Source: Octopus sinensis
Taxonomy: Eukaryota
Assembly: GCF_006345805.1 (NCBI RefSeq)
Contig: NC_043019.1
Coordinates: forward strand, 27,403,360-27,467,359
Direction of reading: 5' to 3'
DNA: 64,000 bases
Positions 23,058 to 63,349 of this stretch are shown one piece after another. The notes beneath the pieces are model-generated. The model had not been told where the DNA came from. It worked only from the letters and a program-made list of their open reading frames with translations, and ran no database searches. The translations under genes and the position numbers were made by a program. How positions within the stretch are numbered: position 1 is the first letter of the stretch; every line of letters starts with the position of its first letter.

Positions 23058-23565
23058 ACTGGTAGAATGTGTCATATAAAATATCTTTTACTGTTAGCGT
23101 TTTTAAGAAAAGCTTATATTTAGGAAGTTATTTCATGTTAAAGTTGTCCTATTTCGGTAATTTTAACCAATCAATGACGTGTATTCAAAAATTACTGCCG
23201 TTGTTTGTCAACAACTATTGGCAGTGTATTTTTCGTTTGTCACTGTTATTTATGACATTGTTCGTGCGTTTGTACTGGTTTTAGAGTTAGGGTTGTCATA
23301 AATAACAGTGACAAACGAAATATACAGTTCTAGTTGACAAACAACAGCAGTAATTTTATTCAGCTGAATACACGTCATTGATTGGTTGAAATTACCGAAA
23401 TACGACAACTTTAACGTGAAATAACTTCCTAAATATAAGCTTTTCTCAAAAACGCTAAGAGTAAAAGATATTATATATGACACATTCTACCAGTATCCGA
23501 AGTTTGAAAGTGTTTAGTTACAAAAAATTATTTTTCAAAACCTGTTGCTCAAAAGGTGAAGATCC
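23058..23565. mobile_element. Fold-back MITE related to the Merlin MITE family
   Basis: ~200-bp inverted arms (the ORF track gives near-identical peptides on both strands); right end ...GAAGATCC; shares CACATTCTACCAGTAT..GAAGTTT.AAAGTGTTTAGTTAC with the Merlin MITE; left end replaced by a SINE head. Confidence 0.8.
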
Positions 23566-24209
23566 GCCTTAAAAAAAATAAATACTGGGGTTGGTATGTT
23601 TGAGTAGACTTCTCAATGTGGTAACCCAGCAATCTGCAGTCCAATGACTAACACAAATCAAAGATAAAAGACGTGTGTGAGTGTACGCGTGCGTTCGACG
23701 GTTGTGGTCGTTTGTAGTTGTACCAAGCAAAGTCTAAGGGCGATAACTCTGTTCTTACATAACTATCAAAACTTCATCGGTTGATGAGCTATCGATCTTT
23801 TTTTTACCCCTCTCCACCTCCACCAAACCAGACCATTTCAAATTAGAAGTCCTCTCCACTGGTTTATTTTAATATTCTCGCTCCACATTATCTTTTAAAT
23901 ATTTAGTCTGAAATCTCAAAAGATGTTGGTATGTTTTCATAATAAGATATAGGCGCAGCTATTGGTATGTAGTAAGAAGATTGTTTCCCAACCACATGGA
24001 ACCGGGTTCAAATTCATTGTGTGGATTTGGTAGACAGAACCTGAAAGAAGACCGTCAATAAAAATAATATGTATGTGTGACTATGGGTGTCTTTGTGTCT
24101 ATGTTTGTCCCCCACCCCCGCTTGAAAACTGGCGTTGGTGTATTTATGTCCCTGTAACTTAGCAGTTCGGCAAAAAGTAACAATATAAGTACCAGGCTTA
24201 AAAAACAGC

Positions 24210-33545: not shown

Positions 33546-33959
33546 GGATCTTTTTGGTTTGAACAGCAGTTTTTAACATAATTTCCACATAACTAAACAC
33601 TTTTAAACTTCGTATACTGGTAGAATGTGTTTATAAAACATCTTTTTCTCTTGGTTTTATTGAGAAAATTCCATAGTTTGTAAGATATTTGTTGTTTTTT
33701 TTTCTCCAATTTCTGCAATTTCAACCAATCACTGACGTCCATTGAGGTAAAAAAAATCATTCTGTGCTGTATGAATATGTCCCTCGTTTAAGAAACAGAT
33801 TGGGTTTATTTATATTTGTGAAGAAAAAAAGATACCCTTCCCCCACCCCTAACCCTAAAACAGATTGAAATGCAATAGATCGATACTAGGGTCATAATTA
33901 TGGGTGACAATTTCATATGGCACCGCTAGTAAAAACTGCCATTCAAACCGAAAAGATCC
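33546..33959 (+). mobile_element. Merlin-type MITE, full length (414 bp)
   Basis: TIRs GGATCTTTTTGGTTTGAACAGCAGTTTTT / AAAAACTGCCATTCAAACCGAAAAGATCC; 8-bp TSD CTTTACTC / CTTTACAC. GG...CC ends with an 8-bp TSD fit the Merlin superfamily. Confidence 0.85.
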
Positions 33960-38559: not shown

Positions 38560-39750
38560 AGTCATCAACTGGAACTGGAGGCAGGAATATGTATAGGAAC
38601 CATAGAGATTACAATGGGTATCAAACTTAACGTTTTAAAACGTTTGATGTAGAAGATACAGAAATCAGCCACATCGACAAAACAAAGAATTGCAACATCT
38701 ACAGTAGGAGCAATATAAGTGTTTAAGAAGCTATTCCATTAACTAGTCGGATCTTATTTTTTCATAGATATATATTTCTTTATTGCCCACAAGGGGCTAA
38801 ACATAGAGAGGACAAACAAGGACAGACAAAGGGATTAAGTCGATTACATCGACCCCAGTGCGAAACTGGTACTTTTATTTATCGACCCCGAAAGGATGAA
38901 AGGCAAAGTCGACCTCGGCGGAATTTGAACTCAGAACGTAATGACAGACGAAATACCGCTAAGCATTCCGCCTGGCGCGCTAATGTGTCTGCCAGCTCGC
39001 CAATTTTTTCATAGATATAACATGATGCTTATAATGGGACAGCTATAATGGGGCTGAGAATCAGGCTTGAGTAATCTGCAGTTAAGCACAATGGTAATTA
39101 AAAAAACACAAAGTTCGTATGATGATTTCCTGAAAAGAGAAAGTGAAACTTGCTAAGTAGCAAGTTAGAAAATCTCTATAAGAGATGAAGTAGGAACTAG
39201 ACTGAGAAGTAATGATTATTGCCACTTCAACATGGCTGTTCCATTACTACTGTTTTTAACCCGAAGAGCATCTTCGTCCAGCTGATCATTGATGCAATCT
39301 GCATCAGGTGCAGATTGCATTGATAACCAGCTGGAGGAGGCAGCTCTTGGAGTTAGAAACAGTAGTAATGTCAGTTCCTATGGAAGTCATATTGAAGATG
39401 AAACTTCTAATGAAAAGCCTGTTCTGTCAAGTAAAGGCTGATTTGAAGCACAACATAAGAATGACTTGTAAAGCTGCTTGTGTGGATATAGAGGTTGCCA
39501 CTAATCCTGAGCAGCTGAAGGAAATTATAGCTGAATGGAGCCACACACCAGAACAAATAGATAATGTTGATGCAATTGAACTTTTCTGGAAGCACATGCC
39601 TGACAGAACTTTTAGTTCTCGAGAAGAAAAACAATCAATACCAAGATTTAGACCTTGAGTAAATTGTCTGATGTTTCTTTTAAGAGGAAATGCTGTTGTT
39701 AATATGAAATGAAAGCCCTTGCTTGTGTTTCATACAGAAAATCCATGCCT
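38560..39750 (+). mobile_element. pogo/Tigger-like transposase relic interrupted by a SINE
   Basis: ITMGIKLNVLKR (CENP-B-like start); EQIDNVDAIELFWKHMPDRTFSSREEK and GNAV..MK*KPLLVFHTENP, with stops. Confidence 0.75.
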
Positions 39751-41474
39751 CTGACTTGGTGTTCAAATAAGGCCACGATTATGGTCTTACTTGGATTGCC
39801 GGGTCACCTCAAGCATAGCATATCTCCACAGGTCTTTGGTGGTCACTGAGGAAACTAAGCATAGACAAATGGCTCGATAGGGCTGTATAAGCTGTGTACA
39901 AAGATGCAGTGGTGAGTTTAGTGTTAAATGTAGGAGTTCAAAGTTCAGTTCTCAGTTCGTTCCAATTCATCAAAGTCTGTCAAGCCATCAGAGATGAGTT
40001 TAAGACTGGTTGTCCATGGGAACTCCTACACGGTGATAATCTAGTTCTCATAGCTAAATCTTTAAAGGAATTAGAGAGGAAATTCCACATAAAAGCACCC
40101 AGCACACTCTGTAAAGTGGTTGGCATTAGGAAGGGCATCCAGACATAGAAAACTATGCCAAATCAGATTGGAACCTGGTGCACTTCCCCAGCTTGCCAAC
40201 TCTGATCGAACCATCCAACCCATGCCAGCATGGACAGCAGACATTAAATGATGGTGGTGATGATGAAAAGGAATCAGATGTAGTGTGTAAGGAAGGAAAC
40301 AGCACTGATATGGATATGTGATGTGAATGGATGGGGTCCACTGTATAAAGAAGTGCTGATTACCAAATGTGGATGGAGATTGCAGAAGAGGGAGACCCAG
40401 GAGAACATAAAACAATATGACAACAGAAATGATAAGAGACTTGGATGATTGACAATACACAGTTCTTGAGAAGACTTGCCCAACTCAGTGAAGCCAAGTT
40501 CTGGAAGAACTCTGTGTGTGTGTGTATGTATTTGTATGCATGTAAGCTTGTACATGTGCACGACTGGGCCCTTCATCCAATTTCTCCCTCAAGATAAATG
40601 CTACCAAAACAAGTGGAGTAAATTTTGAACCCCGCTTGTGTTCTTTTATCATGATACTTAATTGTTCCCTAACACCCTTTCTCTTCAAATATATATTGTA
40701 TTATGGATGTTTAACAATTTATTTCCATACATAAAATCAGTTGTCTTGTTTTGCTTTTCTTTCTGTTTTTTTTTTATAAACAATCTATCAGAAAATTTTG
40801 GGAAAATAAATTTTATGGACAGATTTTCAGGAATGCATCACTTCTGTAATGCAAGGGAATCCCCTGTGTTTGTGTGTGTGTATATATATCTATATCTATC
40901 TATATATATATATACTCTTTTACTTGTTTCAGTCATTTGAATGTGGCCATGCTGAAGCACCGCCTTCAGTCGAGCAGATCGGCCCCAGGACTTATTCTTT
41001 GTAAGCCTAGTACTTATTCTATCAGTCTCTTTTGCCGGGGACGTAAACACACCAGCATCGGTTGTCAAGCGATGTTGGGGGGACAAACACGGACACACAC
41101 ACACATACATACATATATATATACGACGAACGTCTTTCAGTTTCCGTCTACCAAATCCACTCACAAGGCTTTGGCCGGCCTGAGGCTATAGTAGAAGACA
41201 CTTGCCCAAGGTGCCATGCAGTGGTACTGAGCCCGGAACGGTGTGGTTCGTAAGCAAGCTACTTACTACACAGCCACTCTTGCGTCTATATATATATAAA
41301 TTGTATGTAGTCGTTGGTTATAGCCGGTCAGAAAGTTACCTAGCGGTTCGGCAAAAATAAACGATATAATAAGTATCATACTTTAAAAAACGAGTCCTGA
41401 GGTCAAGTTGTTCGACAAAACCTTTCAAAGCGGTGCTCCAGGATGACCGTAGATAAAAATGACTGAAGCAAGAT

Positions 41475-42539: not shown

Positions 42540-42730
42540 TTACAAATAAGAGAAATTCAGCTGAAAGCTTTATAGTGTAGAGTTGTATCAAAACATTCAA
42601 TACTCTTACTGAACCGAACCGAAGCTATTTTCAATTTTTTTTCCAGCGACCATAATCTATCAGCGACGCATGCGCAGTGAGTCGGTCGCATGGCGTCTAC
42701 ATTGGATGTCATGACGAAATTGCAGTTGAA
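42540..42730. promoter_or_regulatory. Probable promoter and first non-coding exon of the PRDM gene, possibly bidirectional
   Basis: Local CpG enrichment; NRF1-like ACGCATGCGCAG (~42666-42677); YY1-like ATGGCG on plus (~42690) and AAAATGGCG on minus (~42416-42424); minus-strand GTAAG donor at 42539. Confidence 0.5.
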
Positions 42731-46959: not shown

Positions 46960-48705
46960 AGAATATCTGGTGGAGTGGGATCTAGTCTAGTCACTTATAT
47001 AGTTAATCAGATTGTGCATGAAGGTGTCATACCCAATGACTGGTGTAGCAGCATTATAGTCAGCTGCTACCAGGGTAAAGAAGATACCTTAAATAGAAAT
47101 CATTAGAGAGGTACCAAATTGCTGGACCAGGTCATGAAAGTCACAAAGAGAGAGTGTTATAGCCCAATTAATTAGAAACAGAGTTAGACTAGATGAGATG
47201 CAGTTTGGGAGATGTACTACTAATGCTATCTCCTTAGACAATTACAGGAGAAGTATTTAACTAAAAGCAAACCATTGTACTTGGCATTTGTTGACCTGGA
47301 GAAAGCATTTGACAGAGGGATATGGTGGTCCCTGAGAAAGCCAGAATAGACAAGTGGCAACTGAAAGTCATACAGGCCATATGCAAGGATGCTGTCAGTA
47401 AGGTGAGAGTTAGCTGTGAGTACAGCAGTGAATTTAGAGTATAGGAAGGCATTCACTAGGGCTCAGTTCTCAGTCCTCTCCTATTAATCATAGATTCCAG
47501 GTCATAACAAAGGACTTTAAGACTGGCTGCCCTAAGGAACTACGGTATGGTGATGACCTTATTCTCATAGCAAAATGAGTAGTAGAATTAGAAAAGGAAT
47601 TCCAAGCATGGAAGCAAAACCTAGAATCAAAGGGACTTAAAGTTAACTTTGCAAAGTCCAATTCTCAAGAAAACAGGAAAGCTACCCTCACGTAAATGGC
47701 CCTGCTCAATATGTAGGAAAAGAGTAGGCAGGAATTCCATTTGGTGTACCCAGTGCAAACTCTTGACACACAGGAGGTGCAGTGGAATCACAGGAAGGTT
47801 AAGTTAACCCATTGCCTGCCATGAGCCCTATTTGGGGATCTACTAAAAACAGTCTCACTGCCGATTGTTCGCTGTATTTTTTAGTGAATTGTTTATATAT
47901 ATTGCATTTGCAGAGGTGTGTTTCACAATATTCAGTAGTTAAAGTTTGTCATTATTAGCTCTGGCCAATTCTAGAGGACATTCTATGTCATAAATCGGAA
48001 TCTTTGAAAATACAAAAATATTGACTGTTTTGAAAACGTTTTTTTCTTTATGCATTTCCCATCTCTATTATTCATTGATATTTCATACACATTTGCATTT
48101 GATATTATAGTTTAAAAAAACAAACTAAAATGTTTATTATTGCAATTGAATAAAAAAGGATAAATATGCTTTTTTTCAGTGATCTCCATTTGGGACTTTT
48201 CGGAAGATTTATAATTTCCAAAATAATTCACATATGAAGAAAATTTAAATACTATATATTATTTTAACTTCTAAGACACCTGGCAAAGCCAAAAAATATG
48301 AATAAAAAAATTTGGCAGTTAATGAGTTAAGAAAGTAGTTTTTCTATGTGAAATACATACCAGACATTAACCCTTTCGTTACCAACCTGGCTGAAACCAG
48401 CTCTGGCTCTGAGTACAAATGTCTTGTTTTCATAAGTTTTTAATTAAAATCTTCCACCAAACCTTAGTCACAATTTATGTTCCTAACACTAGCTTAATGA
48501 TAACCAAGTTATTTTATTAAATTTTTTGTTATATTTAAAGTAATTGAAAGAAACACAGAGCATCTCAAAATAAATACAGTAACGAAAGGGTTAAAGTCAC
48601 ATAAGAAATAGAGTTTTTCAAATGTTCTGGAGGCTTCCTAGAGGTAGCAGAGTTTCAGTTATCTAGGTGACCTAATTAGCAGTGGAGGAAGATGTTATCA
48701 AAGTA
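46960..48705 (+). mobile_element. RTE LINE reverse-transcriptase relic split by two TTAA MITEs
   Basis: KPLYLAFVDLEKAFD, ELRYGDDL, LESKGLKVN remnants; MITEs at 47808-48326 and 48371-48590, each flanked by TTAA. Confidence 0.8.
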
Positions 48706-49482
48706 AACCTTTTTTTTTTTTGTTTTTTGAGGACATTTCTTTCAAGAGCTCTAACTTTTTCCAACCTATTATTTACCTTACTTTCCAGATAAATAATTCC
48801 TTACAAAACCTTTTGTCCAAATTTTAAGCCCGAAAAATTAGGGGGTTCCTTATACACGTTAAAATACGGTATATCTCAGTGAGTTGCAAGGATGAAGTAC
48901 AAGCAAAATTAGAAGAAAGACGGAAGAGTTATTTCCCCTGGACTTGTATTAAAGACAAGGATGACAAAACAAAGTCGATCTCGGCGGAATTTGAACTCAG
49001 AACCATGAAGACAACCACAATGCCGCTAAGCATTTTGTTCGGCACGCTAACAATTCTGCCAGCACGCTGCCTTTCGTAATAATCCTTTTTACTAAAGCGG
49101 CGAGCTGGCAGAAACATTAGCACGCCGGGCGAAATGCGTAGCCGTATTTTGTCTGCCGTTACATTCTTAGTTCAAATTCCGCCGAGATCGACTTTGCCTT
49201 TCATCCTTTCGGGGTCGATTAAATAAGTACCAGTTACGTACTGGGTCGATATAATCGACTTAATCCGTTTGTCTGTCCTGTCTGTGTTTAGCCCCTTGTG
49301 GGTAGTAAATAAATAGGTATTTCGTCTGCCGTTACGTTTTGAGTTCAAATTCCACCGAGGCCGACTTTGCCTTTCATCCTTTCGGGGTCGATCTAATCGA
49401 CTGACCCCTCCCACAAAATTTCGGGTCTTGTGCCTAGAGTAGAAAAGAATAATCCTTTCTACTATGGGCACAAGTTCGAAGT

Positions 49483-49587
49483 TTATTGGATTCACACCTC
49501 ATTGAATTTATGTGGTGCTATGAATTCAAAGATAAAACATTCCAAAAATTGTTGGAACATATTCGTTGCAAATATCCTTACAATTGA
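49483..49587 (+). pseudogene. Merlin transposase C-terminal fragment
   Basis: Translates LLDSHLIEFMWCYEFKDKTFQKLLEHIRCKYPYN*, a typical Merlin C-terminus. Confidence 0.75.
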
Positions 49588-51289
49588 AGCAATTTACAAA
49601 CTACTGTTTCGAATGTTGTTCTATGAAAAGATAAAAATTGGCATCAAATTGTCTATTCATAACATACAATAATATATGTTCAAGTCTTTTCATATCAGAT
49701 AATAAAAAAAGTTATAAGCAATTTAGGTTAATGCTTACTTAAACACCCAGCCACCAAAACAAAACAAAAAAGTGTAATAGGTGTAAAAAAAAATGCATAT
49801 TAAATTAATATCATCATCGTCATCGTTTAACGTCCACTTTCCATGCTAGCATGGGTTGGATGATTTGACTGAGGACTGGCGAACCAGATGGCTGCACCTG
49901 GCTCCAATCTGATCTGGCAGAGTTTCTACAGCTGGATGCCATTCCTAATGCCAACCACACTGAGAGTGTAGTGGGTGCTTTTACGTGTCATTGGCATGAG
50001 GGCCAGTCAGGCAGTACTGGCAACAGCTATGCTCAAATGAAGTTTTTTATGTGCCACCTGCACAGGAGCCAGTCCAGCGGAACTGGCAATGACCTTGCTC
50101 AAATGTTTTTTCACGTGCCACCGACACAAGTGCCAGTAAGGCGACACTGGTAGCGATCACGCTTGAATGGTGCTTTTTACGTGCCACTGGCACGGAACCC
50201 AGTTAGCTGCTCTGGCAACAATCATGCTCGGATGGTGCTCTTAGCACTCCACATGCCAGAGAACAAGAATTTGCACCAACAAACTAATTATAAAGAAATT
50301 TGTGGGGAAAAACTTTTTCTGATGGGGTAGGAAGAGGACTTTCAAAGAGAAGGAAATTCATAAATTATTTTTCGTTTGAGTGTAATGGAAAAAAGTTTGA
50401 CAATAAAATTTTTGAATTCATTTATTTTTCATTTGAGTAATAGAAAAAGGTTTTACAAAAAAATCCCATGTGGCCGTGTGGTAAGTAGCTTGCTTACCAA
50501 CCACATGGTTCCGGGTTCAGTCCCACTGCATGGCATCTTGGGCAAGTGTCTTCCACAATAGCCTCAGGCCGACCAAAGCCTTGTGAGTGGATTTGGTAGA
50601 TGGAAACTGAAAGAAGCCTGTCGTATATATGTGTATGTGTGTATGTTTGTGTGTCTGTGTTTGTCCCCCTAGCATTGCTTGACAACCGATGCTGGTGTGT
50701 TTATGTTCTGGTCACTTAGCGGTTCGGCAAAAAGAGACCGATAGAATAAATACTAGGCTTGCAAAGAATAAGTCCCGGGGTCGATTTGCTCGACTAAAGG
50801 CAGTACTCCAGCATGGCCGCAGTCAAATGACTGAAACAAATAAAAGAGTAAAGAGTATCATGGTGAGAGAAACAAATTCATAAATGCAGTGTTGAGTATG
50901 GTTTCACTATGGAAAAAAAAGTTAAGGGCAATTTAGCTGTTCTTTTTAGTACATCTCATGACTATCAAATACGTTCCTTACTTGTTTAATATTTTCTCTC
51001 CATAAACACATTTGAGTAATGGAAAAAGGTTTACGAAAAAAAATGTGGTATATGCCTCCCCACCCCACCCCGGAACTTTGTTGCCTCATAACTTTCAACA
51101 AAATATATTTCATTAACGAAAATGAAAAAAGAATTTTGTATATTTGTCTAACAAAAAAATTACATTTACACCCTTGAATTTGTTTGAGTGTGGTTAGATT
51201 GTGCTGAATAGCCAATAGGATTGCTCGGTCTGGTTCACTCCTGAAACGTTTTACTTGCTACAACAGCATGGCTTTCTGCAACTCTTGAA

Positions 51290-51590
51290 AAATGTCAGTC
51301 TATATGAAGGTATTCTGCGATTCCACGCAAATGATCGACCTGCAATTCCCCGTGTCTTTCACATGACAGGACAAACATGGTGAGACGTCAGCAGTCTGGA
51401 AAGGAATGTGGATACTCCATGTCTACATTTCAGAACACCTTTCTGGAACACATCTACCTTCTGACTTGGAAGGTTTGGCTTTTTGTGAACCACTTTCTCG
51501 GGGCAGCTTGGTTGCACAAATCATTAAGGGAAAACCTAGGATTCTGCCATGAAACCTCCGTAGACTGGCGGTCTTTCTGCTTAGAGGTTA
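51290..51590 (+). pseudogene. Merlin transposase N-terminal fragment
   Basis: CGYSMSTFQNTFLEH...WKVWLFVNHFL...TSVDWRSFCLEV. Confidence 0.75.
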
Positions 51591-52287
51591 GCAAAGGTAA
51601 AGGAGGCAAACACCACCCATTTTCGGATATTTATCTTTTTGATACAGGAGAATATGATTTTGACCAAAAAACCACATTTTCAAAATGTTAATACCCCCCC
51701 CCCCCAATTTATTAATTTTAAACTTTTTTCTAATTTTTTTTTAACCCATATAGAAAAATATAGAGATTATGAATCTGGGAACATTTTTTTTTAACTTTTA
51801 ATTTTTCTTTAAGAAATACTAAATGCCCCTTCCACCCCCACCCCACCCCTGTTTTCAAAAAATAAAGACTCAGAATCTATCTCCACTTTATAGGCATGGC
51901 TGTGTGGTTGAGAAGCTTCAATTCCAACCATGTCACCTTGGGTTCAGTCCTACTGTGCAGCACATTGGGGTATTCTCTTTCATTACAGCTGCATGTTGAC
52001 CAAAGCCTTGTGTGTTATATAATTACCATTACATGTATTGATATATAAAATAACACATACAACTCACTTTTTATCATCATATAATAAACAAACAAAAGTT
52101 CATGTTACTTCAATTATTACATGTTTTCTCTTATAAAACATACACACACAGGAGGAGTACATCTACATATATAATAACACTTTGAATGTAGCTCCCGAGA
52201 AAGAGTAAAAGTAATTACCTGATCAACGATGGGCATTACTGCTAGTTATCTATATAACTGATAGCAAATTTTGTATGAAATTATATT

Positions 52288-54734
52288 AAATCCAGGTTTA
52301 GTCACAGATCAATCAAGATAGTAATGTTTTAACAATGTGAGGTATACTTGCCATCTCAATATGGCTAACCACTAAGGGTGGGTGTTACTGTAGCTTGTAG
52401 CCCAGGAGAACATCGTCTCCAGCTGGCTTTAGACACACTTACTGTGCCCTTAAGGTATTTGCAAAGTGAGGTCATCCTTCCCTCGTCAACCTAAGTGATA
52501 CACACGGAACAGTTTTGTGACAACATAGTGTCTCGATACATTCTAATGAAAATGTGATAGAAAGAGATAATGCCACTCTCTCTCTTTGGAAGAGAAATTA
52601 ATTTTGGTGTTGATAGAAAGGCAGAAAACACTGGAAGCAGTCAAGTGGAGCAGGAGACATAGCCTGCAAAATTAAGGAAAAACGTATTTAGACTTATTTA
52701 TCATGAAAAAATGGCATGCCTTCACAAGTAGCCCCTACCTGACTTTATTTTCATCCCCACCTCAATCAAGAGAAGCTGTGTGTGAGTAAGAAAAAATATT
52801 TCTAATAGAAAAGTATGCTATTAAAATGTATTCTCATTTACATTCATCTTTTCTGCCAGCAATGACCTTCTCAGGCTCTCCAATATTAACAATTTTAAAA
52901 ATATTTTTTACCAAAAAGCTTCTTCTATGGTTTTGAAGTGCAAAAAAAAAAAGAAAAAGGCCAAAACCGGTCTGGGGGAGAATGGTGATGAAGGGGTGGA
53001 AAAAAAAAAGAAGAAAATTTCGTTAAAAAGTATCCATTTTTCTGGAAGTTATGAGGCAACAAAGTTGACGCTGAAAGATGGATGTCTTTTAATGAAATTT
53101 CTGTGGTTGGGATGTACAATGCATATTCCATCATTTTCCATTTTTCAGACAGTTGTGAGGAAAGAAAAATTGAAGGAGTCACATTGTGTAGGTATGCCTG
53201 AAAAAGTACACAGAAATATGTTATAAGAATTATCATTTACATACCGTTCAAAAATCATTGTGGATAAATTTCTGCTATGTGTTTTAGGAAGGTCTTGTAA
53301 TTCTCCCATGCTCGGTCATACGTCATATTATAAAGGTCTCTGTACATGGCCTCGTTGACGTGTAACCATCGCATATCTCCACTCGACGTGAATTTGTATT
53401 TCAGTCTACTCTTAATTCGGTTCCAGTAGCCCTCCACTTGATTTCCACATACACCACTCTCTGGGTCCACAGTTCCATGTATGTATCCAAGGCTTTCTAG
53501 ATTCCGGTAACTAGCCCACTGGTCTGTAAACACTATAGACCCTGGTTCTACGTTGTTGATAATGAGTGACTCCAGTGTCTCTGTCTTTCTATCTTCAACA
53601 TGTTGCAGATGTCCTTTTTTCTGGGTGTTGTCGTAGAAACCAACAACCCAGTATGAATGCACCACACGCCCGGCTTCATTTTTTCTCTGAAACATTAAAC
53701 TTTCATCTATTTCTACAACATGATTTGAGCCACCTAATTTTTTTTTATCTCTTAATAATTTCTGCAAACAGATTTCACGGCAATATTCATACCACTGTAT
53801 TGCAGTGACTTTACTGACATTGTTTGCTGACATGGAACTGGTTACCGGCATTTCAAAAATAAAATCGAAAATTAGATTGAAAATTTTGTACACAGAAAGC
53901 TTACTCTTCTCCAAGAAAGTCTTGGTACGGATTGACACTGCATTCTTGCACTTGTGGCATCTCCATACCACCCCATCTATGGCACGCTGAGAAGGCCTTA
54001 TGCTCATTTCCTTTCCACAACTACATGTCTTCTGATTCGAAATGATTCCATTGTCTTTCAGATATTGTATGAAATTCTCTTCCGATAAATTTTGGGCCAT
54101 TTCATATCTTGGACAATCCATCTTGAAAATCAAATTCTAAAAAAATTAGGAAAGAAAGTTCAAATAGTCAAAGAAACAAAATCAAAGTTAAAAAATTAAG
54201 AAAAAAGTCCAAACAGTCAAAAAATTATCAAAAAACAGTCAGAATTCATCATCATCATCATCATTTAGCGTCCGTTTTCCATGCTAGCATGGGTTGGACG
54301 GTTTAACTGAGGTCTGTGAAGCTGGGAGGCTTCATCAGGCCAGCCAGATTTGGCAGTGTTTCTACAGCTGGATGCCCTTCCTAACGCCAACCACTCCGTG
54401 AGTGTAGTGGGTGCTTTTTACGTGCCACCTGCACAGGTGCCAGACAAAGCTGGCAAACGGCCACGAACGGATGGTGCTTTTACGTGCTACCGGCACGGGG
54501 GCCAGGCGAGGCTGGCAACTAGCAAAACAATTAATTACAGGCGGAAGCTGTGGAGATTGTGATAATAAAACAAATGTTTCCCTCACCACCACCAAAAATT
54601 AATTTCTCTTCCAAAGAGAGAGTGGTAATTATTTCTTTCTCTCACATTTTCATTAGAATGTATTGAGACACTATGTTGTTACAAAGCTGTTAAAACTTTA
54701 CAAACCTGATCAACCTGTGACTAAACCTGGATCC
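52288..54734 (-). mobile_element. Merlin (IS1016/ISXO2-like) element with ~145-bp imperfect TIRs
   Basis: 54591-54734 (ending GGATCC) is the reverse complement of 52288-52334 plus 52512-52608; the left TIR is split by a 177-bp insertion; no matching TSD. Confidence 0.85.
53255..54121 (-). CDS. Merlin/ISXO2-like DDE transposase, uninterrupted 288-aa ORF (possibly domesticated)
   Basis: Zn ribbon CSCG...WRCHKC; SIRTKTFLEKSKL; LGG..HVVEIDES; PGSIVFTDQWASY; NQVEGYW; C-terminal HIAEIYP. First ATG at 54121 (the ORF track starts at an upstream TTG). Confidence 0.92.
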   Translation of the reverse strand: MDCPRYEMAQNLSEENFIQYLKDNGIISNQKTCSCGKEMSIRPSQRAIDGVVWRCHKCKNAVSIRTKTFLEKSKLSVYKIFNLIFDFIFEMPVTSSMSANNVSKVTAIQWYEYCREICLQKLLRDKKKLGGSNHVVEIDESLMFQRKNEAGRVVHSYWVVGFYDNTQKKGHLQHVEDRKTETLESLIINNVEPGSIVFTDQWASYRNLESLGYIHGTVDPESGVCGNQVEGYWNRIKSRLKYKFTSSGDMRWLHVNEAMYRDLYNMTYDRAWENYKTFLKHIAEIYPQ

Positions 54735-54796
54735 ACTTAACCCATCTACTTACACATAAAATATTGAGTATTTATGGGGAAGCCTCAAGAAGTGCA

Positions 54797-55000
54797 TTAT
54801 TCAACCCGCAACGAGGCCTGACTATCTGAAGTACTTCGTTTAGTTACTTTTCTCACCATCAACCCAGCAACTTCATAAGTTTCTTTTGGAGGCTGCAAGA
54901 CTATACCCAGGTTCCTGAGGACACCGAAAACTGTATACCGGTTCTTGATGTCGTTCTCCGATAACTCCTTAACGGTGCATTTTTTAATACTGTAAAACAT
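54797..55000 (-). pseudogene. Possible degraded Merlin N-terminal fragment
   Basis: FGVLRNLGIVLQPP...KRSTSDSQA resembles the Merlin N-terminal region, but the cysteines are lost. Confidence 0.35.
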
Positions 55001-55488
55001 TCAATACAGCTCTTCCTACCCCCATTAGGTTTGTTAACTTGCTTATTGGTGACCAAGAGAACTTGTAGTAATTAACTGAAAATATTAAACAAACAAGGTC
55101 GTGAAATGTGCTAAAAACAAAAGCTAAATTACCCTTAAATTTTTTCTATAGTGAAATCATATTCAACACTGCATTTATGAATTTTTCATCTCACCATGAT
55201 AGGATCTTTTTTTTAAAACCTTTTTCTATTACTCAAATGAAAAATAAATGAATTAAAAAATTTTATTTCAATCTTTTTTTCGATTACACTAAAACAAAAA
55301 AATAATTTATGAATTTCTTTCCCTTGAAAAGTTCTCTTCCCACTCCCTCTGAAAAATTTTTTCCCCACAAATTTCTTTATAATCGGTCTGTTAGTGCAAA
55401 TTTTTGTTCTCATATTTGTTTAATACACATTTTTTACACCTATTTCACTTTTTGTTTTGGTGGCTGGTTGTTAAAGTAAATATTAACC

Positions 55489-55790
55489 CATGAATCACTA
55501 TAAATAACTGAGCCAGGTATGATATATACCTGGATGAGAGGAACCAGTGTTGCTTTGTCAGGCTTCTTATTTATTAGCGGCACAACAAAAAGATGCTTAC
55601 TGGTTCACTCTATTCCACTAAACAACCAAACTTGGCTCAGAATTCAACTCCTTCTTTATTTCTGGCGGACAATCAAGGTCTCATCAATTTCGACCTCAAT
55701 TGATTTTCTGATAATTCATTCCACTTTTCTGTTACTTCACAACAGAACCTCCAATCTACAGAAGATCTTGGACACAATTCCATCACTGTG
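55489..55790 (-). pseudogene. Merlin transposase catalytic-core fragment
   Basis: SVDWRFC...EVEIDETLIVRQK*...QVWLFSGIE*TSK...KATLVPLIQVYIIPGSVIYSDSW, with stops. Confidence 0.85.
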
Positions 55791-55839
55791 ATATGACTCC
55801 AAGAACAATGTAGAAATTTGTCTATAAAAAAAAAAACGA

Positions 55840-57015
55840 TTTTCTACAGAGGATTCAGGGTGTGGAAGCAAGGTCTAGAATTAAAGGGCCTTAGGTTTAA
55901 CCTAGCAAAAACCAAAGTCTTAGTAAGTAAGGTTCACAAATCACAAACACTTTCAGGTAGATGGCTCTACTCAATCTGTAGAAAAGGCGGGTAGAAACTC
56001 CATATGATGTACCCGGTGTAGGCTATGGACACATAAAAGGTGCAGCAATATCAAAGGAAGGTTAATCAAGAAGGTAGTTTTTGTGTGTGGCAGATGCACT
56101 GGGGCAATAAACACTGAAGATGTACAGAAATCAGATTCCATCATATGCCAGGGGGAAAACCTTGAAGTAGTTGATAGCTTCTGCTACCTAGGCGACCAAG
56201 TCTGTGTGGGGGTGGATGCTCTGAGAGTGTAGCGGCTAGAGTAAGAATAATCTGGGCAAAGTTCAGAGAGTTCCTACATCTGCTGGATGTGTAATGTTAG
56301 TGTGGATACATGACAGAGTGTGAGTGCCCCGAGAGAAAAGTTGGACATAAGAAGCATCAAATGCAGAGTGCAAGAGAGACAACTGCGCTGGTATGGTCAT
56401 GAGCTCTGTATGGATGAGGAGAGCTGTGTGAGGAAGTGCCACACCCTAACTGTGGAAGGAACCTGTGGAAGAGGTAGACCCAGGAAGGCATGGGATGAGG
56501 TGGTGAAACACGACCTTCGAACGTTGGGCTTCACTGAGGCAACAGCAGGAGACCGAGACCTTTGGAGATATGTTGTGATTGAGAAGACCTAGCAACTAAA
56601 GTGAGATCGCAGACATGGCCGATGCTAGTGTTGCATGTCCGGCCCTTGATGCGTCGGGCGATATGATATGCTTGAGAAGACCTGTTAAGTCAAGTAAAAC
56701 CAAGATCGTAGCTGTGGCCAGTGTTCCCTGACTGGCTCCCGTGGAAAATGCACCATCTGAATGTGGTCGATGCCAGTGCCTCTTGACTGGCTCCTGTGCC
56801 GGTGGCACGTAAAAAGCACGTGATCGATGCCAGAACTACCTGATTGGCTTCTGTGCTGGTGGCACGTAAAAAGTACCCACTACACTCTCGGAGTGGTTGG
56901 CGTTAGAAAGGGCATCCAGCTGTAGAAACATTGCCAGATCAGATTGGAGCCTGGTGCAGCCTTCTGACTTGTTAGTCCTCAGTCAAACTGTCCAACCCAT
57001 GCCAGCGTGGAAAAC
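55840..57015 (+). mobile_element. RTE-clade LINE 3' portion with UTR
   Basis: LEVVDSFCYLGD, QERQLRWYGH...GTCGRGRPRKAWDEVV, and the standard tail. Confidence 0.85.
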
Positions 57016-57223
57016 AAGGCCCTTGAAACTCCGATGCAGAAAAACGACACTGCTGCAGTTTTTTTTTAGATTTAGCGACAGTATAACTCCTTCTGGATCG
57101 CCAGAAATGTTGGTCCTTTCTTTACACGCATTCACCCCGAAATTGTGGAAATATCACAATAGTTGGCAGAACACCACGATTCCGGAAGAATCCAATAGAT
57201 TTTTGGTCGTCCTCATGGATAAG

Positions 57224-57733
57224 AAAAGTAAATAAACATTAAGAGGGAGACAACTAGATTCTCGTCCTTTACTTACACGGAAATATGTCCTCAAACGTGA
57301 ATCAATCTTGGAAGAATCTTGGAATATCACTCAGTTAATCGAATCAGGAGCCAATATTCTTCAGTGGTTGGCACGGCGTCGACGAATATGTACACTTGTG
57401 AAAATTGTAATTCACCATGTGGCCTCACTACACGTGGTGACGCTACAGATGGGAAAATGTGAGTCTGTAAAAGGAGTAAGTTAGTTCGTTCTTCGAAAGA
57501 AACCATATTTTATTGTACAATATCGTTTTGATCATTTATGATCACGCGATATGTTCCATATGTGCATGAGTGTTTCATAAACAGTCGGACTACAGTCGTA
57601 GATTGGTGTAATTTCTGCCGCGAAGTACGCGACGTTTGACAACAAAACCCAATGGAAATCGGCGGTGTTGATGGTAACGGGTGACCACAAGTTGTGGACT
57701 AGTTATCTCCCTCTTAATTTTTATCTACTTTTT
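57224..57733 (+). pseudogene. Internally deleted Merlin transposase bracketed by 34-bp inverted repeats
   Basis: ILQWLARRR...CENCNSPC...DGKM*VC...TVVDWCNFCREV...EIGG; IR AAAAGTAAATAAACATTAAGAGGGAGACAACTAG / CTAGTTATCTCCCTCTTAATTTTTATCTACTTTT. Confidence 0.75.
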
Positions 57734-58329
57734 AAAAATCCCTATACTGAACAATTGCCGAATATATTTCTTTTCTCACACAACATTTAAGATATATTTA
57801 TTCTAAATCACTTTTTTGTAGACAGAAAACGGTATTTATTCGCGAGCCCCACACACCTCACCCTATAACTTTTGAACCAGTAATTTTAATTTTTTTTTTT
57901 CAGAAACCTGTTTTCGATATCGGAGATTAAGATTTAGGAAAACATTTTTTTTTAATTTCAGTACCCCAACCCCAATTTATTTGCTTCGTTTACTGTTGAC
58001 AAGACGTGCTGTCACACGCAAAAGGACAATTTCCAAATCCTGTTTCCTGATTGGGTGAAAATTATCAAACTTTAAACCTCTATAACTTTTTTAAAACATT
58101 TTTCTGGGAAAAAGTGAAACAAGCAATTTAGATTGGAAAAGTACATTATTGTGCCAAATTAAACAATTTTCGATAAACTTCAGTTTTTGAAATGCTGGTA
58201 GCCAAACCAACTTGATCCATTATAGAACCATTGGAACCTGGTGTCGATCATACAGCAAAGTTGGTTTAAAAGGTACATAAGCACAATTTAACTTCATTAT
58301 TTAATTATGAACTTTATTGATATCGGCAC

Positions 58330-58980
58330 CTGTAATATCCGTCAATTGTTTGACTCCGCAGCAACAGTTAAATTGACAATATTGGACTGTTACATCATGC
58401 GAGAATTTGTTACACGTGTAACCGAAAAGGAAATTGACGAAAGAAAGGAAAGTTCTGAGATGGACGTGTAGAAAGGAGAAAGGTTTGAGAGTCGGTCCCT
58501 TCTTTGCCAATAGTAATTTGGACTTGAGAGAAATTTTAATGTTCATTTACTGCTGGGCATGTGAAGAAGCATCTCAAAGAAAATGTCAACGGGAGCTGGA
58601 ATGGAATAGTGAGGCTATTTGTAATTGGAAGAATTTCCTCCGTGACATATGCGCAGAGAAATTATCAATGAATCCAATATTACTTGGTGACCTTGGACGA
58701 AAGGTTCAGATTGACGAGTCTGTACTTAAATGGAGAAAGGGGTATGTTGGCAGATTGACACGACAACTGGGCTTTTGGTGGCATTGATACAACAAGTAAG
58801 GAGTGTTTCCTTGGGACAGTGGCAAAAAGGGATGCCAACACTCTTTTACCTGTGTTGGGCAAATACGTGAGACCAGGAACCACTGTGGTGTCAGATCTGA
58901 GGCGATAGTGAATCATCAAATTTCGTTGATCCTATGACAGGAAACCACAGTAATACAACCGAAAATCTGTGGACGAGGGC
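58330..58980 (+). pseudogene. Merlin transposase pseudogene
   Basis: GLRVGPFFANSNL...NWKNFLRDIC...KVQIDES; after a frameshift RDANTLLP...VRPGTTVVSD; then FVDPMTGNHSNTTENLW. Confidence 0.88.
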
Positions 58981-59297
58981 AGTTACCCAATTTGAGTTTC
59001 GACGGGAAAACTTGCAAAGGGAAAGGGATTTCTTTTTAAACACTCTATATTATTTCAATCTATTCTGCAGTCTGGGATTAATATATCCAATGATTTTAAG
59101 AGGTATGAGAAAGGTATTGTGGTTGGTATTGGCGCAGTTTGTCTCCTGCTGTATTACGCGCCAATATGCAACCCAACCAATCGCAACCTTCATTTAGTCT
59201 TCTAAATGTTCCGTTTGAGCCTATAATTTGCTATAAAAGTTTCACTGATTCTCCGTAATGTGTCTTTGGTTCTCACCACTGACCACAGAGCCCTCCA

Positions 59298-59773
59298 GTC
59301 GGGGTCACCTCTTGTAGGGCGACCAGAAGGCTGCGTGTTCGAATCACGTCAGGGTCAACACTTGTTGAACGACCGTGCGAAAGAAGAGGTGATGAATGAA
59401 TGACTCCTTCAAACACCACACGGTCGCCTTACAATAAAAGCCAAAGTATGGATAAATGAATTCAAATGCCAGAAGTGAAAAGAGAAGATGACACAACCGT
59501 AATATTTTAAGAGAAAGGTTTATTTAGATATTAGCAGAGTGTGTCCGTATGTGCGACATAATTACATATATAATAAAAACAATAATAGACAGGCCGTCAT
59601 GCATACAATATGTGAATGTGTGTTAGCTGAGTGTATCTGTGTGTGTGCCATAGGTACATATATAATAAGAACAATAATAGACAGGCCGTCAAGCATACAT
59701 AATGTGTATGTGTGTACAAACAAGGGTGTATGCGTGTCAGATAAAATACAGAGCATAGAAAGATGTCTATAAC
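59298..59773 (-). mobile_element. LTR retrotransposon 5' LTR with tRNA-Trp primer-binding site(s)
   Basis: Minus strand TGTTATAGAC start (59773), internal tandem repeat, AATAAA near 59520, ...CA ends at 59363 and 59313, each followed by AG and a TGGTGACCCCGAC-like PBS. Confidence 0.6.
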
Positions 59774-59859
59774 AGGACGCTAGATGAATGTTCAGACACA
59801 AGATGAAGATAAATATCAGTTCGTAGTAAAGTACACAATAGATTTTGGTAATTTTAGGC

Positions 59860-60527
59860 AATCGTAAACCACAGACAAATTCATGCCTGTTTTGATAGTA
59901 AGAAGCTGAACATGAGAACTTTTTTGTCTGCGAGAAAGTACGTGCCTGTTGCCTTAGTTACAAGCGAAACCGTGCAGTCTTTGAAGTCTTTTATCTGTGA
60001 GGAAGCACGTGTTCTGTGTGATTATGGGAGCAAGCTCCAGTGACTTCGCTTCTATTATGGGAACATTGAAAACAGAGGGTGGTCCTGGGAAGATTTTTAA
60101 AATCGATGAAACAGTCTTCTGAAGACGTAAATACAAATGAGGAAGACTCGTACTTGAGCAGTAAGTTTACGGAGGAATGTGTCGCGAGACCAGACAGGTT
60201 ATTCTATATGCAGTGCCATGTCGGAATCGTGACACACTGGAAGAATGCATACGTTTTCAGCGATTTGTGAGGGACGAACTCTCACATTCCTGAAATTGAT
60301 GGTTATAATTTTGAGAATAGAACAGTGAATGACAGCGTTGGGTTTGTTAACTCGAAAGATGGTACACACACTCACCAAGTGGGCCTCTGTGAACTAAGGT
60401 AATAAACGACGCCGTGGCACTCACCGTTCTATGGTAGGTTCATATCTCTGTGAATTTATGTGGAGGATATGAAAATTGTAATTTGTTTGAAAAATTGATT
60501 GAATGTATTTCTAACTTCCAGTTTTAA
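59860..60527 (+). pseudogene. Merlin transposase pseudogene
   Basis: KIDETVF*RRKYK*GR...YGGMCRET...TVNDSVGFVNSKDGTHTHQV...GSYLCEFMWR..NLFEKLIECIS. Confidence 0.85.
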
Positions 60528-61223
60528 CTTTGAAAATATTTCGTATTGTGTTGCTTATTGCATGCTTAAATGTTTGGCTTTTAAGCATATTTTGTTCACT
60601 CTTAATTTCATATATAACATATAAACATGTACTTGGAACATTGTCCTTTTATAAGATTTTGCCGGCAAATTTTAAAATTAACATAAACAGTTATTTATAT
60701 GAAAGAAAATTGCCGGAGAACTTCCATTTAATTCTTCCAAATCTTTCTGTAAAAAATTGTAATGTGTTTATCGCATGTAACGTGTTGTTTATCGCATTTG
60801 CATTAAATGCATATTGAATGCGTAAATGTTTGCTCGTTTCTTTTTGTCATTGGGCATTGAGGCGGTTGTATTGTGTGCTAAAAATAACAGCTAAATAAGA
60901 TTTGTTGGATAAATCTTTTAAATTAATCGGTGGATTTATTTCACTAGAATTCTTATATGTTTACAAGAGCTAGATAGGCATCTCCAACTAGCAGGCCATA
61001 CTACTCCAGACTTATGACGAGCAAAAACTCAGAAACTAGACTTTGGATGCAGGCTTAGCCTGGTGGTGATGCTTATCTCCCCCTTGTAAACATAAGGACA
61101 CAGGAAAAGTGTCAAGGCCGACAGGAAGCGTTGCTGCTTCCTAGGGCTAAGTAGCAGTAGTGTGAGTCCCTTCATTGGACTGTCACATTAAGTTGACAGT
61201 ATACAACTATTCTATCGTCCCAC

Positions 61224-61637
61224 GGATCTTTTCGGTTTGAACGGCAGATTTTTAAAATAATTCCCACGTAACTAAACACTTTTAAACTTCGTATACTGGT
61301 AGAATGTGTTTATATAACATCTTTTTCTCTTGACTTTATTGAGAAAATTCTATAGTTTGTAAGATATTTGTTGTTTTTCTTCAATTTCTGCAATTTCAAC
61401 CAATCAATGACGTCTATTGAGATGAAAACATTCTGTGTCGTATGAAATTGTCCCTCGTTTAAGAAACAGATTGGGTTTATTTACATTTCTGAAGAAAAAA
61501 AGATATTCTTCCCCTACCCCTAATCCTAACCCTAAAATAGATTGAAATGCAATAGATCGATACTAGGGTCATAATTATGGGTGACAATTTCATAAGACAC
61601 CGCTATAAAAAAACTGCTGTTCAAACCGAAAAGATCC
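61224..61637 (+). mobile_element. Merlin-type MITE, full length
   Basis: Same family as 33546-33959; 8-bp TSD CGTCCCAC / CGTACCAC. Confidence 0.88.
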
Positions 61638-61996
61638 CGTACCACTACTGCATATATCTCTCTGAGATATTTAGAAATTTAATATTTCTATTAACATAGA
61701 CATTTATTTACATAAAAGAAAATTACCGGATTGTTATGCCAAATTAAAAATTTTCGGTAAACTTTAATTTTTGAAATGCTGGCAGCCAAACCGACTAGAT
61801 CCCTTGGCGTAATTAAAACTCAGAACATAAAGCCGGAAGACATGCTGCTAAGCATTTTGTTCGACACACTAACGGTTCTGTAAGCTCACCGTCCAATTTC
61901 GCTAAACAACCCTGCAGCTTATTCACCAGAGAAAAAATAATAAAAAATATAGTTATAGTTATCTCCCCTGTAGTTGCTTAGGAATTTATTTTCTCG

Positions 61997-63349
61997 ATGC
62001 CACCTGCAGAGGGCGTCACTAATCATAACACGAATATGGCTTCCGATGTCAGTAAGTCACGGTTGGATTTCACGGAAGAAGAAATAAGAAAGGAGCTCTT
62101 TCGGTATGGCATCAAAGATATCAACCGAAGTAGTTTACGTCAATTTCGAGAAGAACTTCGGAATTTGGTGAAAAAAATATCCTCAAGTTCTCTTCGTAAT
62201 GTTGGTAAATCCACCTCGATTTCGTCTTCTTTCAACAACGTAACTGACACTTGTTTGAAAATCTCTCCTCCAGAACCCTTTTCTAAAACTCCTCCAACTG
62301 CCAAGAACGTTGACGATAAGTCATGCCTGCCTCATACAGACGATCGTCGTCCTGCTAATTCCATGGAGCCGTCGATTGTTACCGTTTCTCACAATCGGCC
62401 CCAGAAAACAGCTGAATGTTCCAAACACGTTGCTTGCAGAAGAAGCTGTCAATTGTTCAACAGTGCCAATAAGGTGGATGGTCACTCGGGTATGACACCC
62501 AACCATCAATACACACACACTCAACAGCCACTGACTAATCGATCGGAAACGGAACATGAAAAGCAGGAGAATCTCCTTCAAACTTTCACCAGTAAAAACG
62601 TTCCGCAGCCAAACCAGGTAAATAGATTTGATCATCCCAAGAACAAAGAAAACGCTTGGTCTCGTCATATCGCACCTTCGTCATCTTCCTCATCTCTCTC
62701 ATCACAAGTATCGATCCCCAAACCATCACAAATCGCCTCCAACGACACCGAAAGCAATGCCATGAAAGATTATTTACTAAAGACGTTGAACAAACCTCCA
62801 CGACTAAACACTTATGTTACCAAGAGGAAGATCTCTCGCAAAGGCTCCGATGGTAAACGTTACATCGACAGAAGTGAATCTGTGTGTAGTATCAGTAGCA
62901 CTAGTTGTATATATGGCAGTTGCTGTAGCAGTATCGCTGACCCCGCTGAGTGCCAGAATCGTCTGAGAGAGATAACAAACAGAGGCGGCCAGTTCTGTCA
63001 AAGATCCCTGAGTTCTTGTGATAACCGGTTCAGGTCCTCAACTATAGTTACTCCATCACAGCCGAGGTTGAAGAAAAACAGAAAGACAGACCCCGTGAGT
63101 AGGTTCCATGAATTCCAAAGCTACTGGAAATTGCACAAGCCTCCCGGTGAAAATAATCACAACGCCCTTCGGTGGAGCATTAAAGAGAAAATTGCCAAAC
63201 ACGACGTCATAGGAAGCCGTCCACGGAAAACTTTCGTGCCCAATAATTATGTGATACCCTCACAAAACCCGAGACATTCTCTTCGATGGCAGGTGCGGAC
63301 TGATCTGGCTCACGGCGCGATGCCAACCACCAAATATAACGACTATTAA
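61997..63349 (+). CDS. HYLS1: Hydrolethalus syndrome protein 1 homolog (centriole/ciliogenesis), single coding exon
   Basis: HYLS1 box KTDPVSRFHEFQSYW...PGENNHNALRWSIKE...FVPNNYVIPSQNPRHSLRWQVRTDLA; N-terminal FTEEEIRKEL motif; 450-aa open frame; possible acceptor CCCCTGTAG about 24 nt upstream. Confidence 0.9.
   Translation: MPPAEGVTNHNTNMASDVSKSRLDFTEEEIRKELFRYGIKDINRSSLRQFREELRNLVKKISSSSLRNVGKSTSISSSFNNVTDTCLKISPPEPFSKTPPTAKNVDDKSCLPHTDDRRPANSMEPSIVTVSHNRPQKTAECSKHVACRRSCQLFNSANKVDGHSGMTPNHQYTHTQQPLTNRSETEHEKQENLLQTFTSKNVPQPNQVNRFDHPKNKENAWSRHIAPSSSSSSLSSQVSIPKPSQIASNDTESNAMKDYLLKTLNKPPRLNTYVTKRKISRKGSDGKRYIDRSESVCSISSTSCIYGSCCSSIADPAECQNRLREITNRGGQFCQRSLSSCDNRFRSSTIVTPSQPRLKKNRKTDPVSRFHEFQSYWKLHKPPGENNHNALRWSIKEKIAKHDVIGSRPRKTFVPNNYVIPSQNPRHSLRWQVRTDLAHGAMPTTKYNDY

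Follow-up and report, generated by a model that had tools for sequence, protein, structure and literature searches.

Merlin elements and transposon piles

Preferences for nested insertion are well known from plant long terminal repeat (LTR) retrotransposons and MITEs (miniature inverted-repeat transposable elements), from the inversion-breakpoint hotspots of Drosophila buzzatii, and from the homing of P elements and hobo. The flamenco locus, a unistrand PIWI-interacting RNA (piRNA) cluster, carries dense transposon fragments that lie mostly on one strand. Here, we describe a 12-kb pile of elements from a single superfamily, Merlin/IS1595, in a 64,000-bp stretch of the Octopus sinensis genome (NC_043019.1, positions 27,403,360 to 27,467,359; hereafter the window), among which one transposase gene, open reading frame (ORF) A, is intact. 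Merlin/IS1595 elements encode a transposase of ~300 amino acids, have inverted ends of 24-462 bp that start with GG, and produce target duplications of 8-9 bp (Feschotte 2004, via Lopes et al. 2021, PMC8101967). Elements that insert in or near related elements, and thereby build local piles, have been described (PMC6911290), and putatively domesticated Merlin ORFs are given for Stentor, Perkinsus, Symbiodinium, and Perkinsela (PMC8101967). Neither a preference for nesting nor the domestication of a transposase is in itself a new kind of phenomenon.

The octopus locus shares with Merlin/IS1595 the domain DDE_Tnp_IS1595, a transposase of ~300 amino acids, and the GG inverted ends, and an 8-bp duplication is seen for a MITE and possible for the intact element, A. 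What differs is the arrangement: the available text of PMC8101967 does not include a multi-family nested cluster, and the word “nested” occurs 0 times in its main text. LTR and MITE nests, the buzzatii hotspots, and P or hobo homing mostly involve one family or mixed classes, whereas the families piled up here number at least five, are 12-44% identical, and belong without exception to one rare superfamily. The dense fragments, and the placement of five of the six relics on one strand, recall flamenco, but here a single superfamily of old DNA transposons is involved and the strand bias is nonsignificant. Like the putatively domesticated Merlin ORFs (as far as the available account describes them), ORF A is preserved, in syntenic position, and without sign of mobility; unlike them, it retains recognizable inverted ends, has an animal host, and sits amid dead relatives. 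Our search of the open-access literature found no report of multi-family Merlin clustering or nesting, or of the conservation of ORF A or its co-option in octopus.

Detection and extent of the cluster

Three profile hidden Markov models (HMMs), built from 21, 162, and 85 sequences of a Merlin/IS1595 protein collection, were run on the six frames of the window, and tblastn searches of the six-frame window were made with Merlin proteins. Significant coding matches are confined to 49474-60518. In the reversed window, the negative control, the best E-values were 0.81, 0.012, and 0.34 with the 21-, 162-, and 85-sequence profiles, respectively. Over positions 1-49,400 there was no match better than E 0.25 (162-sequence profile, six frames), which agrees with an earlier reading of the window made from its letters only (the sequence-only reading), in which no Merlin coding remnants were noticed in the first 49 kb.

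The 12-kb cluster is genuine. It holds seven Merlin elements (six relics plus the intact element A), with coding sequence within 49.5-60.5 kb. The domain DDE_Tnp_IS1595 is recognized by Pfam in ORF A and by the custom Merlin profiles in the six relics, and the coding pieces sum to 3,637 of 12,326 bp. Seven elements within 11-12 kb of 64 kb have a chance of 2-3e-4 under a uniform model, with the span picked post hoc. Terminal inverted repeats that start with GG and fall within the 24-462 bp range are present in B1 (~390 bp), A (~140 bp), and the MITE (30 bp); paired ends are not present for the relics F1, F5, F6, F7, and B2. Target duplications match at seven of eight positions for two MITE copies and at six of eight for A under one reading of its ends, and none was found for B1.

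Anatomy and nesting of elements A, B1, and B2

Self-comparison of the window reveals two nested inverted pairs. The features of the three elements involved are as follows (P numbers denote reference proteins).

49726-50962, plus strand: left terminal inverted repeat of B1, ~400 bp without insertions, GG start; inverted match to 55098-55488
51290-51595, plus strand: F2, N-terminal third of the B1 transposase; subfamily HMM match at 51332-51595, E 1e-21; 42 of 84 residues identical to P0290
52288-52612, plus strand: left inverted end of A, interrupted by an insertion (~52335-52522); its terminus is either 52288 or, given an 8-bp duplication, 52295
53255-54121, minus strand: ORF A, intact 288-amino-acid Merlin ORF of element A; Pfam DDE_Tnp_IS1595, E 3e-12
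54587-54734, minus strand: right (5') inverted end of A, from self-comparison
54727-54921, plus strand: F3, C-terminal third of the B1 transposase; subfamily HMM E 1.4e-11; 30 of 62 residues identical to P0290
55098-55488, minus strand: right terminal inverted repeat of B1, GG start; interrupts the B2 frame directly after the second catalytic Asp motif
55488-55837, minus strand: F4b, middle of the B2 transposase with first and second catalytic motifs; HMM E 4e-29 and 2e-7; 60 of 113 residues identical to P0302
55863-57016, strand not assigned: ~1.2-kb block of non-Merlin repeats inside B2, with copies elsewhere in the window
57017-57238, minus strand: F4a, N-terminus of the B2 transposase; HMM E 1.2e-12, reached by 0 of 40 shuffles

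We read F2 and F3 as parts of one element, B1: P0290 is the best-scoring reference for both, they lie on the same strand, and they group in the tree with support of 0.94, a grouping that rests on common relatives because the two pieces do not overlap. The B1 arms, ~390 bp each, differ by 10.6% over 387 aligned sites, and the left one holds two repeat insertions (~49812-50258 and ~50470-50858). Element A separates the N-terminal third of B1 from its C-terminal third and lies within B1's inverted ends, and its own arms differ by 10.4% over 135 aligned bases. If the ends of A are placed at 52295 and 54727, its flanks match at six of eight positions, the right flank then being the D-P codons that open F3, which begins directly at the end of A; this 8-bp target duplication is suggestive only. 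The stretch 52016-52294 was considered as decayed B1 coding running into the duplication and rejected, as 1 of 30 and 19 of 40 shuffles reached its score. A and B1 also have in common a 50-bp subterminal stretch that is 84% alike, although their proteins are only 21% identical.

In B2, profile positions 17-85 lie on one flank of the repeat block and 97-225 on the other. We take this block to be a piece of an RTE-like long interspersed element (LINE) plus a short interspersed element (SINE). A continuation of B2 to the left of 49726 is unsupported (8 of 30 shuffles reach the signal). No target duplication was found for B1, nor does B2 resume beyond B1's left end; a deletion probably occurred afterwards. 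The order of insertion is B2, then B1, then A. Because A is the innermost of the three, it arrived late and did not seed the pile. From arm divergence, A and B1 would be roughly 16-32 million years (My) old, the spread reflecting how a rate of 0.0036 per My (PMC13282606) is applied.

Other relics and divergence between families

The remaining four relics lie to either side of the nest.

49474-49611, plus strand: F1, C-terminal end of a transposase; HMM E 1.4e-5, 0 of 40 shuffles; 14 of 34 residues identical to P0108
57254-57699, plus strand: F5, N-terminal half, a further Merlin family; HMM E 2e-6; 56 of 149 residues identical to P0135
58365-59008, plus strand: F6, about three quarters of a transposase with three frameshifts; HMM E 1e-25; 104 of 208 residues identical to P0063
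60048-60518, plus strand: F7, catalytic and C-terminal part; HMM E 9e-16; 58 of 139 residues identical to P0169

Overlaps between pieces were counted where they extended over at least 15 columns (n = 20). Identity is 12-44% in 19 of these pairs, and the other, F1 with F7, is 53% identical over 15 residues. Because overlap identity is so low, we assign the pieces to at least five divergent Merlin families. In a tree with 101 reference rows, a selection from a bigger collection in which 70 rows were drawn at random, the relics fall beside different reference clades rather than resolving into one or two rearranged elements. The earlier judgment that they are too divergent for tandem duplicates is thus borne out, and the high copy identity of a one-family tandem or local-hop array is not seen.

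The profiles also bear on where the sequence-only reading had placed its peptides. Five of its six firm relics, at 49483(+), 51290(+), 55489(-), 57310(+), and 58330(+), were recovered in place. The sixth, at 59860(+), is real from ~60048 to 60518, but 59400-60045 is at shuffle level. A possible peptide at 54797(-) does not hold on that strand (15 of 30 shuffles reach it); the same place on the plus strand is the C-terminal third, F3. The piece at 57017-57238(-) had been overlooked. Nor are all pieces unrelated, as had been proposed, because 51290(+) with 54727(+), and 57238(-) with 55837(-), are each collinear parts of one element.

Several minor signals were noted around these relics. At 48600-48990 (+) there is a marginal Merlin-profile signal (E 0.25) that 0 of 40 shuffles reach, yet it amounts to 2.8 bits only; it is possibly the far end of F1's element, past SINEs. 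A 34-bp inverted repeat (57224-57257 and 57699-57732) brackets F5, and without F5 its arms would make one palindrome centered on CTAG; a related motif, TTATCTCCC, recurs at 61073 and near 61960. Between F6 and F7, a non-Merlin insertion contains a 92-bp tandem duplication (59531-59715). An eighth relic at 60939-61013(-) was rejected: it beat 12 of 12 shuffles once, but with both profiles 28 of 40 and 38 of 40 shuffles reach it.

The intact transposase gene

ORF A keeps the catalytic residues D139, D200, and E230. A 7-residue deletion removes its V-N-H..F motif, which is present in 261 of 286 references, and T226, an invariant Thr that precedes the third block (96 of 97 references), is replaced. 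The conserved blocks that flank the D-D-E triad in an active transposase are therefore incomplete. All three close relatives likewise keep D139, D200, and E230 and have lost V-N-H..F and T226, each differently. The predicted structure is an integrase-type fold (predicted local distance difference test score, pLDDT, 87); Foldseek returned no close solved structure, the best matches being integrase-type folds at 7-14% identity.

The 90% cluster of ORF A holds O. bimaculoides LOC106875490 (XP_014779146, P0022) and the full-length relative P0001. LOC106875490 and the HYLS1-like LOC106875489 (XP_014779145) have consecutive accessions, and both are on a sequence of 37,682,611 bp. In the window, too, a HYLS1-like gene adjoins the cluster. 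Because of the consecutive accessions and the same sequence length for the ortholog and its HYLS1-like neighbor, the ORF A locus is very likely common to the window species and O. bimaculoides, with adjacency in the latter taken from accession numbering and not from DNA. In the available supplement of PMC8101967, XP_014779146 is a bare hit, without orthology or selection.

ORF A and its O. bimaculoides ortholog differ at 21 of 288 residues (7.3%), with 6 of 125 in the N-terminal part. For comparison, the HYLS1-like neighbor differs at 60 of 425 residues, 39 of them in its 250-residue middle region, and the middle of a second HYLS1 paralog at 24 of 205 (11.7%-15.6% for the two middles); in simulation, these middle values correspond to a neutral distance (d) of about 0.055-0.075. 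Neutral simulation of ORF A at d 0.05-0.07 gives 31-42 expected differences, with both frames stop-free in 6%-12% of runs, and 21 differences have P 0.04 at d 0.05 and P < 0.0005 at d 0.07. The species split has been put at 13-34 My for the O. vulgaris group, near which we assume the window species to lie. These comparisons suggest that ORF A was likely kept by host selection after insertion. The lost core motifs fit co-option, and the pattern as a whole fits a putative DNA-binding role under selection with catalysis relaxed. ORF A would then, separately from the question of the pile, be a candidate octopus gene co-opted from Merlin.

Two further observations concern this gene. P0002 (O. bimaculoides LOC106875185; full-length, 295 amino acids, 64% identical to ORF A) is encoded on another, 147.8-Mb sequence, and its first catalytic D-E has become K-K (the first catalytic Asp is Lys); it is a further candidate for co-option from Merlin. 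Immediately ahead of ORF A's ATG, 54122-54240 (-) holds a long pyrimidine tract with two AG sites that looks like a splice acceptor and overlaps a 49-bp tandem repeat.

Background density and recurrence

In the O. vulgaris annotation, 18 Merlin families occupy 2,185,638 bp, which is 0.078% of the genome and 1.1% of terminal-inverted-repeat DNA (PMC13282606 Table S1). If 30,000 copies are placed at random, 3e-5 windows with seven are expected.

For O. bimaculoides, we used the 164 KOF models of the PMC8101967 supplement (166 rows, less three repeats, plus one from a FASTA passage); this sample covers the KOF entries, with KOG and XP entries outside it. Seven pairs lie within three locus tags, and six of these are also close in accession number, compared with 2.0 at random (P 0.017). 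By eye, four of the six are different-family pairs covering the same domain and two are near-identical duplicates; model KOF62814, also by eye, fuses two Merlin families. Judged from these models, tight different-family Merlin pairs recur in O. bimaculoides, and gene models miss relics as decayed as most in the present cluster. [quoted passage not shown]

Explanations for the pile

Our best reading, which we hold to be probable though by no means secure, is that Merlins as a group favor the same landing sites, that this produced a partly nested pile of seven, and that the intact gene was then kept by host selection. It amounts to a superfamily-wide insertion hotspot habit plus one later-preserved gene, rather than a unique control locus. 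Each of the seven elements would have arrived through its own insertion, with adjacent deletions and later SINE and LINE insertions breaking the elements up. What attracts them could be either Merlin DNA itself, by way of common subterminal motifs, or some property of the chromatin in this interval to which all Merlins respond alike; self-targeted homing, as proposed earlier, is plausible alongside a common preference for a chromatin site. A would be a late by-product of the hotspot and not its cause, and what probably persists in ORF A is a protein that binds DNA while its catalytic core decays. Merlin/IS1595 target choice has been little studied, and cross-family piling, if true, would mean that a eukaryotic cut-and-paste superfamily holds a common targeting signal over deep divergence.

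A number of points weigh against this reading. Three of the four copies of the MITE family lie outside the cluster, so that family does not home, and not every Merlin-type family does. The published background is too low for decayed relics, which the underlying DNA libraries miss, and the MITE family is probably not part of it. In O. bimaculoides, 152 of the 164 models have no close Merlin neighbor, widening the range to 10 tags leaves no excess of accession-confirmed pairs (8 vs. 6.7), and neighboring locus tags may sit on separate small scaffolds. A target duplication of B1 was sought and not found, and the sequence left of A scores no B1 coding, so the nesting rests on collinearity and inverted ends. 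The case for selection on ORF A uses a protein-level proxy, not a DNA-level ratio of nonsynonymous to synonymous change, and at d 0.04 its 21 differences are unremarkable (P 0.25). Finally, the Pfam control for other transposon types was too insensitive to decide between Merlin specificity and a general sink: among 36 six-frame chunks of 48-62 kb, it found ORF A and one weak PHD match only, and missed all six relics. The earlier proposal of superfamily-specific clustering is supported as regards independent families: coding pieces take up 3,637 of 12,326 bp, compared with 0.078% Merlin DNA in O. vulgaris, and the relics lie beside different clades.

The insensitive control leaves room for a general transposon sink, that is, a weakly constrained interval that takes all insertions and appears Merlin-specific only because Merlin was searched. 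SINE-like and LINE-like repeats do interrupt B1, A, and B2, O. vulgaris has 288 transposable element hotspots (PMC13282606), and Merlin is unusually common in octopus, with 191 protein hits in O. bimaculoides (PMC8101967). Yet Tc1-mariner DNA is ~55 times as abundant as Merlin DNA in O. vulgaris (PMC13282606), and no other DNA-transposase relic was recognized in the cluster by the insensitive Pfam scan and reading by eye; moreover, the first 48 kb is just as rich in these SINE-like repeats but yielded no Merlin coding relic. We regard a sink as unlikely; were it correct, the locus would be an ordinary nest, with interest left in the ORF A gene alone. Similarly doubtful, in our view, is a stronger version of homing, in which Merlin transposases recognize and insert into the DNA of distant Merlin families and octopus keeps one eroded transposase as a regulator that binds Merlin ends. 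The cue might then lie in common subterminal motifs or else in V-D-P, a conserved coding palindrome on which A landed, and cross-family insertion, if true, would represent superfamily-wide homing in an animal.

The sequence-only reading had suggested, among other scenarios, that this may be a Merlin control locus. In a fuller version of that idea, a trap resembling a piRNA cluster would be read in the leftward direction, starting close to the HYLS1-like gene, and the conserved ORF would repress Merlins. Such a locus would account for the conservation of ORF A with an eroded catalytic core and for five of six relics being antisense to its coding strand (P 0.11 for a given strand), but the strand bias is nonsignificant (P 0.11-0.22), and the relics, with stops and frameshifts and ~38%-55% identity to their best relatives, are probably too old to silence young families. 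In addition, piRNA clusters trap many transposon classes, not a single superfamily, and the different-family close pairs at other O. bimaculoides loci (in the supplement sampled) weaken the idea of a unique locus, which we consider improbable. Recruitment of other Merlins by ORF A protein bound to its own ends would agree with the subterminal motif common to A and B1. As an origin of the pile it is very improbable: A lies inside B1 and B1 interrupts B2, which puts at least two elements before A. Within error, the arms of A (10.4%) have diverged as much as those of B1 (10.6%), and none of the remaining relics looks younger. Likewise very improbable is an origin of all the pieces in one or two elements, through local hopping or rearrangement. 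In its favor, two pairs of pieces each reduce to one element, the absence of target duplications suggests rearrangement, and two orphan ends are 89% alike; however, overlapping coding pieces are 12-44% identical and lie beside different reference clades. Because independent families are present, local hopping cannot be the source: it is contradicted for the coding pieces, judged by their sequences, and can account only for the two orphan ends.

MITE, orphan ends, and other repeats

Three Merlin-type features without coding sequence lie within or beside the cluster.

58136-58218, plus strand: orphan right end in GATCC, from self-comparison
61224-61637, strand not assigned: Merlin-type MITE with GGATC ends; 8-bp target duplication matching at seven of eight positions
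61718-61802, plus strand: orphan right end in GATCC, from self-comparison

Both GATCC termini, reported earlier at 58218 and 61802, are real, and the comparison of the two orphan ends extends over 82 aligned bases. The MITE reported at 61224 is also real but not cluster-specific, since three more copies occur in the first 34 kb: 1-227, 33546-33959 (duplication also seven of eight), and a degraded one at 23058-23566. This is ~1 copy per 16 kb of window; were the rest of the genome to match, the family would lie far above the published total for Merlin.

Among other repeats, a 231-bp repeat with TTAA-flanked inverted ends, which we take to be a piggyBac-like MITE, occurs at 48365-48595 and 1352-1582 (copies 90% identical). 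At 39200-39760 there is, by eye, what we presume to be a Tigger/pogo-like transposase relic; Pfam gave no match on its 121-amino-acid frame.

Host genes around the cluster

Pfam identifies three host genes in the window. An exon at about 2.7-3.1 kb encodes a TGF-beta propeptide, the minus strand carries a PR-domain zinc-finger gene, and the HYLS1-like ORF is the synteny anchor.

61997-63349, plus strand: HYLS1-like host gene, outside the cluster; Pfam HYLS1_C, E 9e-26; ortholog LOC106875489

An exact look-up of the HYLS1-like protein from two start codons gave no identical entry. HYLS1 is duplicated, with two paralogs on one O. bimaculoides sequence (P0187-P0194); the copy that adjoins the cluster has a faster C-terminal domain (12 of 105 vs. 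3 of 100 residues), and its coding region is one uninterrupted ORF. Among the crustacean Merlin-domain proteins, P0240 and P0297 are named “mab-31-like” by NCBI, and a literature search on mab-31 and transposase returned nothing relevant. By eye, there is a promoter-like GC patch near 42660 (42540-42720) and an acceptor-like site before the HYLS1-like ATG (61960-61990), and these two sites suggest that the HYLS1-like gene may have a 5' intron enclosing the whole cluster and may be oriented head-to-head with the PR-domain zinc-finger gene.

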